Sequence record: MW722821.1
Source of the DNA: Escherichia phage 590B
Length of the DNA: 44,390 bases
Direction: 5' to 3' (one strand)
Shown here: piece by piece, positions 1-44,390 of the stretch
Numbering within the stretch: the first letter of the stretch is position 1
Layout: the number at the start of each line of letters is the position of its first letter
Position numbers and translations under genes: made by a program
The notes under the pieces: model-generated
The model's database searches: none
What the model was told of the DNA's origin: nothing
The model's input: only the letters and a program-made list of their open reading frames with translations

Positions 1-544
1 CCTGACGGCGGGGACTGTCTATTACGCCTATGACCGCAGGAAAAACAGCAGCCGCGAAACAATAAAACCAGGCGAGACTCTGTATATCGGGCAGGACTTT
101 AACGTAGGCCACATGGCTAGTACAGTTTACGTGCAACGTGGCAAAGTCTGGCATGCAGTCGCCGAGTTGGTGGATATGTTCGATACGCCCGATGTGGTGA
201 GAGCCGTAACAGAGCGCTGGAAAAGTAAGGGCCACTATATCGTTATGTACCCCGACGCAAGCGGTAAAAACCGTAAAAGTAACAACGCCAGCACATCTGA
301 TATTGCCCAGTTACAGCAGGCCGGCTTCGAAGTGCGCGCTAAATCGACAAACCCACCGGTTAAAGACCGCGTAGCGGCGATGAATAAGGCGCTTGAATCT
401 GGTATGGTCATGATTAATGAGCAGGCTTGCCCGGTTACCGCACGATGCCTGGAGCAACAGGCTTACGACAAGAACGGCGAACCGGATAAATCAGGCGGTG
501 TGGACCACCAGAATGATGGAACCACATACCCTATCGCGTATGAA
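1..544. repeat. 544-bp terminal direct repeat (exact copy of 43847-44390)
   Basis: Base-by-base identity of window start and end, checked at both ends of the interval. Confidence 0.85.
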
Positions 545-5553: not shown

Positions 5554-6603
5554 ATGGCAATTACCACTATCGGCGATATCGTAACTGGCAACATCCCGGT
5601 CCTGGCGTCTTATATGACCGAGGACCCGGTAGAAAAAACCGCGTTCTTCCAGTCTGGTATTCTGACCCCGACCCCGTACGCTGCCGAGATTGCCCGCGGC
5701 CCGTCCAACGTCGCTAATATTCCTTTCTGGAAAGCGATTGATACCTCTATCGAGCCGAACTACTCGAACGACGTATACCAGGACATCGCCACCCCGCGTA
5801 ACGTGCAGACCGGCGAGATGATGGCGCGCGTTGCGTACCTGAACGAAGGTTTCGGTCAGGCGGATTTGACCGTTGAACTGACCAGCCAGAACCCGCTGCA
5901 ATCCGTAGCGTCACGTCTGGATAACTTCTGGCAGCGTCAGGCACAACGCCGTCTGATTGCTACCGCGCTCGGGCTGTACAATGACAACGTAGCCGCTACC
6001 GACGCATACCACGAGCAGAATGACATGGTAATCGACGTGTCTGCTACTCTGGGCTTCGATGCGGGCGCGTTCATCGACGCTACCCAGACTATGGGCGATG
6101 CTCTGATGGGCAACGGCGGTGAAGTGCTGGGGGCTATCGCGATGCATAGCTTCGTTTATGCGCAGGCACGTAAGCAGCAGCTTATCGACTTCATCCGTGA
6201 CGCGGACAACAACACCATGTTCGCCACCTACCAGGGCTACCGCGTGATTGTTGACGACAGCATGACCGTAGTCGGCACTGGCCCGACCCGTAAGTTCATC
6301 TCCATCATCTTCGGCAACGGCGCTATCGGTTACGGTGAAGGTTCTCCGTCCAACCCGCTGGAATACGAGCGCGAAGCGTCCCGCGGCAACGGCGGCGGCG
6401 TTGAAACCCTGTGGACCCGTAAGACCTGGTTGCTACATCCGTTTGGTTACAGCTTCACCAGTGCAGTAATCACTGGCAACGGCACCGAGACTACCCCGCG
6501 CTCTGCTTCCTGGCAGGACCTGGCGAACGCCTCCAACTGGAACCGTGTGGTTGACCGCAAGCACGTACCGATTGCCTTCCTGGTAACTGGTGTCGGTGCT
6601 TAA
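5554..6603 (+). CDS. major capsid protein
   Basis: 349-aa ORF after scaffold gene with GAGGAAA SD; size and position typical of an HK97-fold capsid protein; followed by a strong terminator. Confidence 0.65.
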   Translation: MAITTIGDIVTGNIPVLASYMTEDPVEKTAFFQSGILTPTPYAAEIARGPSNVANIPFWKAIDTSIEPNYSNDVYQDIATPRNVQTGEMMARVAYLNEGFGQADLTVELTSQNPLQSVASRLDNFWQRQAQRRLIATALGLYNDNVAATDAYHEQNDMVIDVSATLGFDAGAFIDATQTMGDALMGNGGEVLGAIAMHSFVYAQARKQQLIDFIRDADNNTMFATYQGYRVIVDDSMTVVGTGPTRKFISIIFGNGAIGYGEGSPSNPLEYEREASRGNGGGVETLWTRKTWLLHPFGYSFTSAVITGNGTETTPRSASWQDLANASNWNRVVDRKHVPIAFLVTGVGA

Positions 6604-35556: not shown

Positions 35557-35586
35557 TTGAAAGTTCTTGACACATGTTTGTATAAT
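35557..35586 (+). promoter_or_regulatory. sigma70-type promoter (TTGAAA-N18-TATAAT), divergent from 35491-35519
   Basis: Consensus -10 TATAAT at 35581-35586; would start a plus-strand transcript across a 350-bp ORF-free leader. Confidence 0.45.
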
Positions 35587-36620: not shown

Positions 36621-36772
36621 GAGAAGCATTCGAACGGTGGGCCGTCGTCGAGGGTCTGCCGGTTAACAAGGGTTCGAAGAAAGAGTACCTGAACGTTAAG
36701 ACGCGTCTCGCATGGCGGGCGTGGAAAGCTGGTGTGCAATCCTTGATTGAAAGAGGTGTGAGGTATGGGTGA
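36617..36772 (+). CDS. hypothetical small protein
   Basis: 51-aa unlisted ORF; ATGA overlap upstream and 8-nt overlap downstream. Confidence 0.4.
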   Translation: MREAFERWAVVEGLPVNKGSKKEYLNVKTRLAWRAWKAGVQSLIERGVRYG

Positions 36773-36965
36773 GTGGATTAAGTGTAGTGAGATGCTGCCG
36801 GGTAATGGGTGTACGGATAAAGAGTTCCTGGTGTATGAAACGTTAAATAACGCAGTTCAACACGATTATTACATCGTTCCTGATGACGGGAGAAAGCCTT
36901 TCTGGAATCACTACGATAAGTACGTGACGCACTGGATGCCGTTACCCGAGCCGCCAGAAGTGTGA
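36765..36965 (+). CDS. DUF551-like protein
   Basis: C-terminal HWMPLPEPP resembles the W-x-P-x-P-x-PP signature of DUF551; AAGAGGTG SD; followed by terminator 36997-37035. Confidence 0.5.
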   Translation: MGEWIKCSEMLPGNGCTDKEFLVYETLNNAVQHDYYIVPDDGRKPFWNHYDKYVTHWMPLPEPPEV

Positions 36966-37301: not shown

Positions 37302-37479
37302 AAACGAGCATTTGATTAAAGTTACCCCGGTATGGTCGGCGTGGGTTATCACCCCCGACGGAAAGCACGTACCGAAATTTGTGTTCACTGATGAGAAAGT
37401 TGCGCGTGAGTGGCTTCGTGCAGGCAAGAAAGGTGAACGCGGCGTCATGAAGGTTGGGTTAGTAGGAGACGTAGTATGA
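37291..37479 (+). CDS. hypothetical protein
   Basis: 62-aa ORF from ATG 37291 overlapping upstream ORF end. Confidence 0.45.
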   Translation: MNTKNEHLIKVTPVWSAWVITPDGKHVPKFVFTDEKVAREWLRAGKKGERGVMKVGLVGDVV

Positions 37480-37853
37480 GTAACAAAAACGAAGTATTCG
37501 AGTACCTGATTGACCAACTACGGCAGCAGGTAAATAAGAAAGATGTCACATCTTTCAATGTGTCTGTGCGGATATCCGACCTTGATGAGGTCAAGCAGGT
37601 AATTCACAACCTACAGCAGCATATCGCCGGTAAGGATGACGAAATACGGGCGCTGAAAGACAGTTTACGGCAGCAGGTAAATAACAGCCAGATGCACCTG
37701 GCGGCATCAGAAACGTTTTACTCGATGGAGGCGTGCCCGTCAGCGGCACGCGCCGCTGAGAACGCGCACTTTCTGTTTCAGGGTGACAAGCCCAACGATT
37801 CAGAGGTACGCGCTATCTGCTCACCTAAGCGACTTGGAAAACAGGAGAAATAA
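37476..37853 (+). CDS. hypothetical coiled-coil protein with internal repeat
   Basis: 125 aa; in-frame 18-bp exact direct repeat (37520-37537 and 37667-37684) encoding LRQQVN. Confidence 0.5.
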   Translation: MSNKNEVFEYLIDQLRQQVNKKDVTSFNVSVRISDLDEVKQVIHNLQQHIAGKDDEIRALKDSLRQQVNNSQMHLAASETFYSMEACPSAARAAENAHFLFQGDKPNDSEVRAICSPKRLGKQEK

Positions 37854-37854
37854 C

Positions 37855-38058
37855 ATGGTACAGAGATATTCTAAGTATGGGTCCGACAACCATTTCATTG
37901 ACCGCCACGGGAAGTGGGTTAAGTTTGAGGACTACCAGAATCTTGACCTAAAGCTGTTGGAAGTTGAAGCCGAGTTACAGAAATACAAGGACCAGTTCCT
38001 GGATTACGTCGAGTGCGCGAACTGTGGGTCAGTTACACATGTGGGAGGGGTGGAGTAA
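37855..38058 (+). CDS. hypothetical protein, MVQRY paralog 1
   Basis: 67 aa; N-terminus MVQRY and C-terminus ELQKYKDQ...YVECANCGSVTHVGGVE shared with next gene. Confidence 0.5.
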   Translation: MVQRYSKYGSDNHFIDRHGKWVKFEDYQNLDLKLLEVEAELQKYKDQFLDYVECANCGSVTHVGGVE

Positions 38059-38062
38059 TGGT
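37969..38062 (+). repeat. 94-bp direct repeat, copy 1 (3' end of MVQRY paralog 1)
   Basis: About 88% identical to 38238-38331, including the overlapping stop/start GGAGTAATGG vs GGAGTGATGG. Confidence 0.7.
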
Positions 38063-38327
38063 ACAGAGATATGAGGTAAAAGCGTGGGGCCTGCCAGAGC
38101 CTGAGATGGCTGAGTACGCATACGGCGATTATGTAGAGTACGACAGCTATAAGGAACTGGACGACTATTACCAGGAACGTCTAGCCGACGCCGACAAGGA
38201 AATAGAAGGGCTTGTGTCGAGACTGGCAGAAGTAAACGCCGAGCTACAGAAATACAAAGACCAGTACCCTGATTACGTCGAGTGCGCGAACTGCAGGTCA
38301 GTTACACATGTGGAGGGGGTGGAGTGA
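38058..38327 (+). CDS. hypothetical protein, MVQRY paralog 2
   Basis: 89 aa; same N- and C-terminal blocks as paralog 1; TAATG overlap. Confidence 0.5.
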   Translation: MVQRYEVKAWGLPEPEMAEYAYGDYVEYDSYKELDDYYQERLADADKEIEGLVSRLAEVNAELQKYKDQYPDYVECANCRSVTHVEGVE

Positions 38328-38331
38328 TGGT
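38238..38331 (+). repeat. 94-bp direct repeat, copy 2 (3' end of MVQRY paralog 2)
   Basis: See copy 1. Confidence 0.7.
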
Positions 38332-38578
38332 TATACGCTACGATTTAACAGAAGACTGCGCGAGTGGCGTGGTAGATATAACGCCTGTTCCGGACTCTCA
38401 TGAAGGGCGTTATGTAAGTTACGAAGACTACGCGAAACTCGAAGCCGAACTCAACGATATACTCGATATGTTAGTTAAGCTGGACAACGACCTGGGTTAC
38501 GGCGTAATACCGGACGAATATGCATACGATAGAGTAGGTGAGATTCTGGAGAAGTATCGCAATGAGCCTTGCAACTGA
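38327..38578 (+). CDS. hypothetical protein, MVIRY paralog 3 (diverged)
   Basis: 83 aa; starts MVIRY and shares Y-x-x-YEDY...AEL core with paralogs 1-2 but has a different C-terminus. Confidence 0.45.
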   Translation: MVIRYDLTEDCASGVVDITPVPDSHEGRYVSYEDYAKLEAELNDILDMLVKLDNDLGYGVIPDEYAYDRVGEILEKYRNEPCN

Positions 38579-38855
38579 CATCCTGAAACGAAGCGGCCTT
38601 GCGCCGCTGTCACCGAGAGCGAAGACACGTATACACAAGCGTCGCCGTAACGTGCTGTACCCAGAGATACAAGAACGGCGTAAAGCTATCCGCGCCTGTG
38701 GATTCCAGAACGGAAAGGCCGTGAATCTCGGTGAGTTTAAAACAAAGGAACGCGCAGCTATCGCGAACCGGCTATTTAATTACTGGAAATCGCTGGGGTA
38801 CGATGATATTCCGACGAAACCACAGAGACGACAATACATCTGGAGACATAAATGA
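38562..38855 (+). CDS. hypothetical basic protein
   Basis: 97-aa ORF from ATG 38562 overlapping the end of paralog 3. Confidence 0.45.
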   Translation: MSLATDILKRSGLAPLSPRAKTRIHKRRRNVLYPEIQERRKAIRACGFQNGKAVNLGEFKTKERAAIANRLFNYWKSLGYDDIPTKPQRRQYIWRHK

Positions 38856-39292
38856 CTACTATCGCGTTTGACGGAAAGACAATGGCCTGTGATACCCGTG
38901 TTGTGTGCGGGAGTAACTGTTACAACACAGACACAAAGATATACGAGAACGAATTTGTTGTTATTGGGGCGGCTGGCGATGCAGGGGTTGGTATCCTTTT
39001 AGTGGAGGACGATAGTATTTTAGTGCCTAAGCACTACGATTTTGATTTCTCTGCCTTGGTGTGGGTTAAAGACATCGAAACGTTGTGTAGGGTGGAGTTC
39101 TATAAATCTTGGGATTGTGCTCTTAGTTTGGTTATTCAGATTGCGGACAGCTTTTCCGCCGTTGGTTCAGGCGCCCCTTATGCCCTAGCGGCTATGGAAT
39201 GTGGGTATTCGGCGCAAGGTGGTGTAGCAGTTGCATCGAAGTTCGACCCTGACACCGGCGGCAAGATTATTACCAAACAACTATTAGGATAA
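38852..39292 (+). CDS. HslV-like N-terminal nucleophile (proteasome beta-type) peptidase homolog
   Basis: N-terminus MTTIAFDG matches HslV MTTIVSV (Thr nucleophile after Met removal); VIGAAGDAG and AVGSGAPYALAAM parallel HslV AGFAGGTADAF and AIGSGGPYAQAAA; 146 aa; comparison from memory of E. coli HslV. Confidence 0.55.
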   Translation: MTTIAFDGKTMACDTRVVCGSNCYNTDTKIYENEFVVIGAAGDAGVGILLVEDDSILVPKHYDFDFSALVWVKDIETLCRVEFYKSWDCALSLVIQIADSFSAVGSGAPYALAAMECGYSAQGGVAVASKFDPDTGGKIITKQLLG

Positions 39293-43180: not shown

Positions 43181-44390
43181 TATCACGGCAACGGAGCCGC
43201 AAGGCGCGTTTCTCGGTATGCATTGCAAGTTTCCGGCATTCGTAGCTGGCTTCGGTACGGGTAAATCCGAAGTTATGTGCAACTCTGCACTACTCGACAG
43301 CATGGAAGGTGGTAGCGATTCTATCATCGCCATGTATGAGCCGACTTATGACCTGGTGCGCCTCATCCTTGCACCGCGTATGGAAGAAAAGCTCACCGAC
43401 TGGGGTATCCGGTACAAATACAACAAGTCTGACAACATAATCTATACGTCTTCCGGACAATTTGGGGATTTTGTTCTGCGTACACTTGATAATCCAGCAC
43501 GAATCGTTGGCTACGAATCGTTTCGTGCGAAAATCGACGAGTTGGACACCCTTAACATGGAGCACGCCGAGCACGCGTGGAACAAAGTCATCGCCCGTAA
43601 CCGCCAGTTGCCGCGGACATATAAACCTATTACACCGAAACCTGCTAATACCGTTTCCGTGTTCACTACCCCGGAAGGATTCCGTTTCGTACATGACCGC
43701 TGGGTAGTCAAAAAGAATCCAGGCTACGAGATGATTCAGGCGTCCACCCTGTCTAACCCGTTCCTGCCAGAAGATTATGTGCAGTCGTTACGCGACACAT
43801 ACCCAGGTCAGTTGATTGACGCCTACATCAACGGCGAGTTCGTCAACCTGACGGCGGGGACTGTCTATTACGCCTATGACCGCAGGAAAAACAGCAGCCG
43901 CGAAACAATAAAACCAGGCGAGACTCTGTATATCGGGCAGGACTTTAACGTAGGCCACATGGCTAGTACAGTTTACGTGCAACGTGGCAAAGTCTGGCAT
44001 GCAGTCGCCGAGTTGGTGGATATGTTCGATACGCCCGATGTGGTGAGAGCCGTAACAGAGCGCTGGAAAAGTAAGGGCCACTATATCGTTATGTACCCCG
44101 ACGCAAGCGGTAAAAACCGTAAAAGTAACAACGCCAGCACATCTGATATTGCCCAGTTACAGCAGGCCGGCTTCGAAGTGCGCGCTAAATCGACAAACCC
44201 ACCGGTTAAAGACCGCGTAGCGGCGATGAATAAGGCGCTTGAATCTGGTATGGTCATGATTAATGAGCAGGCTTGCCCGGTTACCGCACGATGCCTGGAG
44301 CAACAGGCTTACGACAAGAACGGCGAACCGGATAAATCAGGCGGTGTGGACCACCAGAATGATGGAACCACATACCCTATCGCGTATGAA
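43170..44390 (+). CDS. terL: terminase large subunit (3' end truncated by window; continues as 1-595)
   Basis: GTG 43170 with AAGGTGG SD, overlapping terS stop; Walker A-like GFGTGKS; reading frame runs to window end. Confidence 0.7.
   Translation, partial: MNVNITATEPQGAFLGMHCKFPAFVAGFGTGKSEVMCNSALLDSMEGGSDSIIAMYEPTYDLVRLILAPRMEEKLTDWGIRYKYNKSDNIIYTSSGQFGDFVLRTLDNPARIVGYESFRAKIDELDTLNMEHAEHAWNKVIARNRQLPRTYKPITPKPANTVSVFTTPEGFRFVHDRWVVKKNPGYEMIQASTLSNPFLPEDYVQSLRDTYPGQLIDAYINGEFVNLTAGTVYYAYDRRKNSSRETIKPGETLYIGQDFNVGHMASTVYVQRGKVWHAVAELVDMFDTPDVVRAVTERWKSKGHYIVMYPDASGKNRKSNNASTSDIAQLQQAGFEVRAKSTNPPVKDRVAAMNKALESGMVMINEQACPVTARCLEQQAYDKNGEPDKSGGVDHQNDGTTYPIAYE
43847..44390. repeat. 544-bp terminal direct repeat (exact copy of 1-544)
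   Basis: See partner repeat. Confidence 0.85.

Follow-up and report, generated by a model that had tools for sequence, protein, structure and literature searches.

Three tandem genes of Escherichia phage 590B encode members of a combinatorial mosaic family of small acidic proteins

Here, we describe three consecutive small genes, g1, g2 and g3, of Escherichia phage 590B (MW722821.1), for which the whole stretch of 44,390 nt was analysed; this stretch is called the window in the following. All three are members of a single family of small, acidic phage proteins that is built as a combinatorial mosaic, and they occupy a variable slot of an accessory-gene operon of Kagunavirus (Guernseyvirinae), the group of the window. 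The proteins follow a common plan, which consists of a MV(Q)RY start, a variable beta-hairpin (about 29 types), a core that opens a long helix, and a C-terminal module (at least 15 types). To judge from the sequence comparisons, the array is a recombinational juxtaposition of pre-existing alleles and not a recent local duplication. More tentatively, its products may be dispensable coiled-coil oligomers that bind host proteins through the hairpin and the C-terminal module. Taking mosaic family, recombined array and host-binding products together, we consider this the best explanation of the locus, and a likely one. Mosaic accessory genes in a variable phage slot are in themselves a known phenomenon, and the family is already catalogued, with function unknown. 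The features of the locus are as follows.

37843..37848, plus strand: Shine-Dalgarno-like AGGAGA 5' of g1, read from the sequence
37855..38058, plus strand: g1, 67 aa, begins MVQRY; N type 'SKYGSDNHFIDRHGK' and short form of C-terminal module A
37909..37944, plus strand: core motif of g1, G19-L30 (GKWVKFEDYQNL), the conserved join of N- and C-terminal modules; from alignments and core DNA conservation
37960..38062, plus strand: direct repeat copy 1, with g1 module A (A39-E67, from 37969), TAA stop and g2 ATGGT
38058..38327, plus strand: g2, 89 aa, begins MVQRY; N type 'EVKAWGLPEPEMAEYAYGD', an extra coiled-coil segment and the long form of module A
38124..38159, plus strand: core motif of g2, G23-L34 (GDYVEYDSYKEL), which holds the homology breakpoint at about 38139-38144
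38229..38331, plus strand: direct repeat copy 2, with g2 module A (A61-E89, from 38238), TGA stop and g3 ATGGT
38327..38578, plus strand: g3, 83 aa, begins MVIRY; N type 'DLTEDCASGVVDITPVPDSHEGR' and C-terminal module C (LDMLVKLDNDLGYGVIPDEYAYDRVGEILEKYRN)
38405..38440, plus strand: core motif of g3, G27-L38 (GRYVSYEDYAKL); from alignments, a hidden Markov model (HMM) and core DNA conservation
37476..37853, plus strand: upstream flank, coiled-coil gene; its 3' part (…ETFYSMEAC…KRLGKQEK) forms the left border of the slot and is conserved
38562..38855, plus strand: downstream flank, the conserved 'MSLATDILK' anchor gene (phrog_9632), which was used to fetch related loci

The homology of the three genes, as proposed in a preliminary description of this DNA, is well supported. 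While BLASTP relates g1 to g2 with E=2e-19, the pairwise matches of g3 are marginal (E=0.02 versus g2, 0.44 versus g1). An N-domain HMM was built from 26 family members, all with N types different from those of the window, and compared to 800 six-frame open reading frame (ORF) segments of the window. It picks exactly g2 (1.3e-14), g3 (2.7e-11) and g1 (8.7e-9); a fourth ORF was not found among the 800 segments, the next best match having E=1.3. Since a model trained on foreign N types still finds g3, its kinship is real. All three also match phrog_29624: g1 covers the 60-position profile end to end (E=1.8e-22, profile 1-60), g2 its module-A part (5.9e-18, 26-60) and g3 its core part (3.2e-5, 15-39). 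This PHROG, of unknown function, represents the short A-type architecture only and lacks the shared N domain and the alternative C modules. We also checked whether the likeness is limited to the residues at the gene junctions, and this is not the case: the N domain is common to all three proteins. The common part opens with MV(Q/I)RY; a variable stretch follows, 13-22 residues long in g1-g3 (up to approximately 23 in relatives), and then the core G-x-[YW]-V-x-[YF]-[ED]-[DS]-Y-x-x-L, which starts 18-28 residues into the protein.

The AlphaFold2 model of g2, based on a 32-sequence alignment, has a predicted local distance difference test score (pLDDT) of 82. Strands 5-9 and 16-19 form a small sheet at the N-terminus; a helix of 42 residues (28-69) follows, and then a C-terminal hairpin (73-75/82-84) with the CxxC of module A in its turn. 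Searches with Pfam, NCBIfam and PDB sequence profiles yielded nothing above threshold for g1-g3, and no fold match was obtained. The matches to Rad50 (NCBIfam, 11 bits versus a cutoff of 1000) and to Phage_scaffold/Prefoldin were rejected as coiled-coil noise.

The mosaic character becomes apparent in the relatives. In searches of 5.8 billion proteins, g2 matched 365 protein clusters and g3 matched 107. No cluster has a Pfam domain; the named ones are all 'hypothetical', and most lie on contigs of 41-46 kb. When cut at the core, 262 members fell into approximately 29 discrete N types and at least 15 types of C-terminal module, and most N types (21 of 29) were found with two or more C types. 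For example, the N type of g3 (DLTED…PVPDSHEGR) pairs with more than ten C modules, i.e., module A, B modules (…PCSKVTEEMAREILGI), its own module C, and at least seven others, and the C module of g3 is joined to 21 N types. The N type of g1 is also seen with the long A form (P0105), and that of g2 is mostly joined to a B module (L016, L018-L020, L023, L030, Bas71, Bas72). Despite a query bias, these pairings clearly show that the two protein halves recombine freely at the core. Codon differences within module A are 901 synonymous versus 449 non-synonymous, and the ratio of non-synonymous to synonymous differences per site (pN/pS) within one hairpin type is 0.22. Because of this purifying selection, the N types and module A are regarded as maintained alleles, neither decaying nor hypermutating. 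We also considered a mutagenic hypervariation of the hairpin, similar to that of diversity-generating retroelements, and rejected it in view of the same ratio and of the discrete types with unequal length (18-28 residues before the core).

The N domain is not confined to this group of phages. A 36-position profile searched with HMMER against 1.84 billion representatives gave 533 clusters (50% identity) at E<=1e-3, a few of which are long repetitive proteins that look like chance matches to YD-type repeats. The domain is nearly always located at residues 1-45; the proteins are 45-260 aa long, and their C-terminal halves are of many kinds. Among its partners are modules of the lambdoid 'ea' region (phrog_492/614/368, HK97 gp37, P22-like EaE), a DUF551-like end (P0345), and an EEAWTVW…IIAYRVV domain (phrog_9174). 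In P0225, P0226, P0239 and P0302, two N domains occur per chain, resembling a fused tandem gene pair. An unrelated 38-kb metagenomic phage contig with a Mu-type portal (L067) carries a tandem N-domain pair (6001-6399, 6399-6578) with overlapping stop and start, and thus the tandem arrangement extends beyond Guernseyvirinae. The distant N-domain proteins show no Pfam domain and no function, and a cluster look-up of ten of them gave no names.

The slot is defined here as the interval between the …ETFYSMEAC…KRLGKQEK gene and the MSLATDILK anchor gene. Via the latter, 63 related loci were fetched from IMG/VR; for the slot counts, the GenBank loci of Bas73 and of phage vB_EcoM_SHAK7858 (L003, OR594183.1) were added and the entry of L036 was corrected by hand. 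Thirty loci are Kagunavirus-like, with no family gene in five cases, one in 14 and two in 11. The 23 more distant Guernseyvirinae loci hold no family gene (18) or one (5), and none of them has two. Among the loci compared, three genes are found only in the window and NTEC3 (L001, OK539620.1). The six BASEL isolates Bas70-75 possess one or two family genes each, namely two in Bas70-72 and one in Bas73, Bas74 and Bas75. Copy-number variation, which the preliminary description proposed to look for, is supported: related phages carry zero, one or two genes in the same slot, and three are seen only in the lineage of the window. Two-gene arrays almost always (10/11) consist of an A-type gene followed by a non-A type.

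Within the window, the three genes are tightly packed. They start with ATG at 37855, 38058 and 38327, with one-base stop/start overlaps (TAATG, TGATG), and the final 17 nt of g3 overlap the downstream gene. The 94-bp repeat reported at 37969-38062 and 38238-38331, which includes the stop/start overlap, is a true DNA repeat (84/94 identical, 89%) and extends to 103 nt (37960-38062 and 38229-38331, 90/103 identical). Its product reads AELQKYKDQ(F/Y)(L/P)DYVECANC(G/R)SVTHV(G/E)GVE, followed by the stop and the next ATGGT. The repeat thus represents C-terminal module A (AELQKYKDQFPDYVECANCGSVTHVEGVE) plus the gene junction with the conserved start of the next gene; the start region of the array-first gene is conserved as well (28 loci). 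Since the final codons of module A (CAT GTG GRR GGG GTG GAG; 38035-38057 and 38304-38326) contain GGAG/GGAGG runs 5-14 nt 5' of the next ATG, the module-A end probably has a dual role, as C-terminus and as putative ribosome-binding site of the following gene. This module-A end, near-invariant with …CATGTGGAAGGGGTGGAGTGATGGTACAGAGATAT, makes up the 30 nt ahead of the ATG in 14 out of 14 family genes that come after another family gene in related loci.

Portions of 37476-38860 match 247 phage records, and identity over this region reaches 99.5% with Escherichia phage NTEC3 and vB_EcoS_SCS92, whose published genomes contain the same three-gene array. Orthologues of g1 in NTEC3, Bas72, Bas73 and Bas74 are 97-98.5% identical. 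The g2 orthologue of NTEC3 (L001 2843-3112) is an intact 89-aa ORF that carries no coding sequence annotation, while both of its neighbours are annotated. Compared to NTEC3, the window has private changes in the most conserved module, P49L in g1 (38001) and G78R in g2 (38289-38291), the latter turning the near-invariant CxxCG into CxxCR. They could reflect a relaxed constraint with two A-type genes present, two changes being few.

The preliminary description had read the repeats as a sign of recent duplication and diversification, and the comparison with other phages speaks against this. Pairs formed from 25 module-A copies of related loci differ at a median of 8/95 nt, compared to 11/95 between g1 and g2, and 86% of all module-A pairs are closer than this one. 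Both g1 and g2 have their closest module-A relative in another phage: the copy of L010 differs from g1 at 3 positions, that of L004 from g2 at 5. Two A modules per genome occur only in the window and NTEC3 among the fetched loci, and the same holds among 60 listed of 100 g1-matching phage records, save one 164-kb record with three places. Moreover, g1 is the single family gene of Bas73 and Bas74; in Bas73 the anchor gene comes next, and identity to the window amounts to 98.6% for g1 and 100% for the anchor gene. Likewise, g2 stands alone in L004 with the anchor gene next to it (99.3% and 100% DNA identity, respectively), and the flanks in Bas73 and L004 are 98.6-100% identical to the window. 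As the g1 and g2 repeats are diverged, their nearest relatives are found elsewhere, and each gene occurs singly in other phages, a juxtaposition of older alleles is most plausible.

The array itself is a patchwork, as seen from a blastn comparison of 37700-38700 to the related loci. The part 37701-38144 runs collinearly with L020 (93.9%) through g1 and 87 nt into g2, where the match breaks off in the g2 core (codons 28-29). Next comes 38139-38331, which corresponds to the 3' half of A-long genes in first position (L023 84.5%, L039 85.8%, also L012 and L007), while 38238-38629, with module A, the whole g3 and the anchor gene start, is collinear with L041 at 90.1%. The 5' half of g2 is the allele usual in the second position of two-gene arrays (in the B-joined loci listed above), and its 3' half is the allele usual in the first position. 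A recent tandem duplication in this genome with fast divergence of the middles would agree with the adjacency and common orientation of the genes, with the 103-nt repeat including the junction and with the identical 15-nt start of g1 and g2 (ATGGTACAGAGATAT), but given the distances above, the single occurrence of g1 and g2 in near-identical phages, the two origins of the g2 halves, and g1 and g2 hairpins that cannot be aligned, we hold it to be very improbable.

The array rather arose when related phages recombined homologously but out of register, at the conserved core and at module A. The simplest history would be a crossover at the core between two parental phages. A parent of the L020/Bas72 kind, with the array [g1][EVKAW/B], would have contributed its second-position gene, and the other parent an array in which an A-long gene comes first and a g3-type gene next; [g1][EVKAW/A-long][g3] would be the product. 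The same process yields arrays of zero, one, two or three genes and fused chimeras in relatives. Hence the earlier suggestion of recombinational expansion and contraction gains comparative support, both from the breakpoints and from several chimeric genes, which prove that family members recombine with each other. L037_1 is a B gene that has taken up module A, the D module of L019_1 ends in HVEGVE, P0150 carries ECANCGSITHVEGVE in addition to module C, in P0084 the fusion is between module A and the anchor gene, and in L006 the upstream Cys/His zinc-ribbon gene ends in a module-A segment, CxxCG…HVEGVE (CDNCGSVTHVEGVE).

A role of the proteins can be outlined with less certainty. They are acidic, with a net charge of -13 each for g2 and g3 and a family median pI of 4.24, and their genes are located in a rightward operon of small genes that leads from a divergent region into the lysis genes. 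An 11/12 sigma-70-like site lies at the operon head (35557-35586); it is the only notable item of a promoter/terminator scan in which the number of sites was no higher than in shuffled sequence. We suggest, as a tentative possibility, that the proteins are dispensable oligomers held by coiled coils. The variable hairpin and the C-terminal module would bind host proteins, in counter-defence or host takeover, and several alleles per phage would widen the target range. Such an accessory host-interaction role is deduced only from dispensability, small size, acidity and allelic diversity, and the anti-defence or host-range idea of the preliminary description is a guess.

Several points count against this picture. 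No member has a measured function or is tied to a defence phenotype, and Kagunavirus phages are highly sensitive to restriction-modification systems, as reported in the BASEL study (PMC11990801). Because many relatives are without the family altogether, its contribution may be small. Concerning the oligomer step, the AlphaFold2 models are monomers; that of g3 shows the same N-terminal order of hairpin and helix at low confidence (pLDDT 60). Finally, the module matrix is skewed toward the query types g2 and g3, and the recombination history is a reconstruction of the order of events from sequences as they are today.

A more specific version regards the N-terminal module as an undescribed, widespread phage 'variable-hairpin' targeting domain, in which each hairpin allele would recognise a different host protein, e.g., a defence component. 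Tandem arrays would then be multi-specific counter-defence cassettes, recombined at the core linker, and module A would clamp two chains via a shared metal. We consider this version doubtful. No known anti-defence family was detected in g1-g3. The restriction-alleviation protein Lar (PF14354) scores 13 bits with g1 (E=0.13) and 14.5 bits with P0032, compared to a gathering cutoff of 28.6 bits, and the Lar profile phrog_3592 matches g3 with E=0.078; due to these sub-threshold scores and the restriction-modification sensitivity (PMC11990801), Lar was rejected. The array content was also compared to the inhibition of Bas74-76 by K-12 cryptic prophages. Bas74 and Bas75 have one gene and Bas70-72 two; Bas73, however, likewise has one gene and is yet uninhibited, and the inhibition was attributed to O-antigen glycosylation (PMC11990801), so that this was not counted as evidence. 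The text of a Kagunavirus time-course transcriptome study (PMC12645636) could not be mapped to g1-g3.

Alternatively, module A might be a zinc knuckle, and A-type proteins would bind nucleic acid, e.g., in regulating the downstream lysis genes. The module ends in C-X2-C-X4-H-X4-E(COOH) directly before the stop, i.e., with the spacing of a CCHC knuckle and a terminal Glu replacing the last Cys. In favour of metal binding, the CxxC is located in the turn of a predicted beta-hairpin, non-significant matches to zinc fingers (NUP153 ZnF3, HOIL-1L) and to Zn_ribbon/treble-clef Pfam families (E 0.05-0.2) were obtained, and in L006 CDNCGSVTHVEGVE closes a genuine Cys/His zinc-ribbon gene. Each chain, however, provides three ligands only, and the His is replaced by Arg or Tyr in L030_1, L041_1, P0051, P0006, P0008 and P0027. 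The four ligands of a CCHC zinc knuckle (C-X2-C-X4-H-X4-C per chain) are thus not present, and the Pfam family zf-CCHC gives no match. The strong acidity (pI approximately 4.2) also speaks against nucleic-acid binding. Members without module A (e.g., g3) occupy the same slot, and the slot is empty in many phages that retain the lysis genes. With three ligands, a variable His and an acidic protein, a classical nucleic-acid-binding knuckle is unlikely, and we judge this explanation improbable. For the C-x-x-C...H block pointed out for structure prediction in the preliminary description, the case for metal binding is weak with only Cys-Cys-His per chain.

A metal shared between two chains is possible. 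In the Rad50 zinc hook, a CxxC at the tip of a long coiled coil shares a metal between two chains, and a coiled coil that ends in the CxxC of module A could do likewise.

Furthermore, the genes might be ORFs with little or no function of their own, a recombination-prone filler between conserved genes. The empty slots in 5/30 Kagunavirus-like and 18/23 more distant loci would fit, as would the lack of any member with a function and the missing annotation of g2 in NTEC3. We nevertheless hold this to be very improbable in view of the purifying selection on module A and within a hairpin type, the intact ORFs and conserved start regions over hundreds of clusters, the confident AlphaFold2 fold for g2, and the N-terminal position of the N domain that is kept in more than 500 diverged clusters.

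With respect to architecture, the closest characterised analogue of the proteins is lambda Ea22, and similar to it are the proteins of the lambdoid 'ea' region (P22-type EaE/EaA, 'ead/Ea22-like', HK97 gp37), which are likewise highly diverse in sequence. In Ea22, a coiled coil lies between a short N-terminal domain and a C-terminal domain that is variable, and the protein is tetrameric, early and non-essential (PMC10834534, PMC7093339). It differs in size and context: Ea22 comprises 182 aa and belongs to temperate phages, whereas the genes described here encode 60-95 aa and reside in Kagunavirus genomes, whose isolates are described as lytic. A pro-lysogenic role as for Ea22 makes no obvious sense in Kagunavirus. 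The C-terminal halves of the N-domain proteins P0264, P0220 and P0221 are homologous to HK97 gp37, to an HK633 gene beside 'ead/Ea22-like', and to P22-like EaE. Membership in the Ea22-like group is not supported, since the sole link is this indirect one via partner domains of other N-domain proteins; for Ead/Ea22/EaE, no NCBIfam match was obtained with g1-g3, and the N-domain HMM finds nothing in the ea regions of HK633 or SE10. A DUF551-like small gene (MGEWIKCSEMLP…HWMPLPEPPEV) is located at 36765-36965, approximately 0.9 kb 5' of the array, and DUF551 genes adjoin EaE and ead/Ea22-like genes in HK633 and Salmonella phage SE10. With a DUF551 gene nearby in both, the region looks like a counterpart of the lambdoid 'ea' region.

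Variable accessory-gene islands between conserved anchor genes are familiar from anti-CRISPR and anti-defence loci and from the hyperplastic regions of T4. The locus resembles such islands in its fixed slot, in which near-identical phages carry different sets of zero to three genes, all of them small, acidic and dispensable. Unlike in those islands, variation goes beyond the presence or absence of whole genes and also occurs inside the genes by module swap at the core, and no anti-defence activity was detected.

Several observations concern the neighbourhood. At 37476-37853, the window contains a single 125-aa fusion, joined between QQVNNSQ and MHLAASETFY, in place of three ORFs of NTEC3 (1501-2638), which encode a coiled-coil protein of 155 aa, an HNH homing endonuclease of 157 aa and a protein of 67 aa (MTSILFIWVLSAGQ…). 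Missing from the window are the endonuclease, the zinc-ribbon end that most relatives have, and the hydrophobic N-terminal part of the downstream gene. On the other side, the anchor protein (97 aa, phrog_9632, 38562-38855) shows a weak match (E=0.082) of residues 37-68 to part of an HNH-endonuclease PHROG. This match overlaps the stretch NLGEFKTKERAAIANRLF (residues 53-70), which has the look of an AP2-type DNA-binding segment, and the anchor protein might be a putative DNA-binding regulator beside the variable slot. Between anchor gene and holins, an HslV-like peptidase gene (38852-39292, phrog_1040, E=1.2e-33) is present in the window, NTEC3 and Bas73, and absent from Bas70, Bas71, Bas72, Bas74, Bas75 and SHAK7858, where the holin follows the anchor gene. 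The SHAK7858 record OR594183.1 is labelled Autographiviridae/Kayfunavirus; its region is collinear with Kagunavirus genomes, and its taxonomy line is probably wrong. Window positions 1-544 are repeated exactly (544/544) at 43847-44390, giving a unit genome of 43,846 bp, and this end repeat is either a terminal redundancy or an overlap of circular assembly.

Altogether, the locus provides a view, at base-pair level, of the modular rebuilding of small accessory genes in phages. Two conserved stretches serve as crossover points, the 12-codon core inside the gene and the module-plus-start-site at the gene boundary, and arrays grow, shrink and fuse between otherwise nearly identical phages. The most useful by-products are this sub-genic module shuffling and the N domain, which is unannotated though common to many enterobacterial phage proteins. 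Should the proteins indeed bind host proteins, their naturally occurring alleles, among them those of the BASEL phages Bas70-75 with their differing combinations, would offer a ready resource for target finding.

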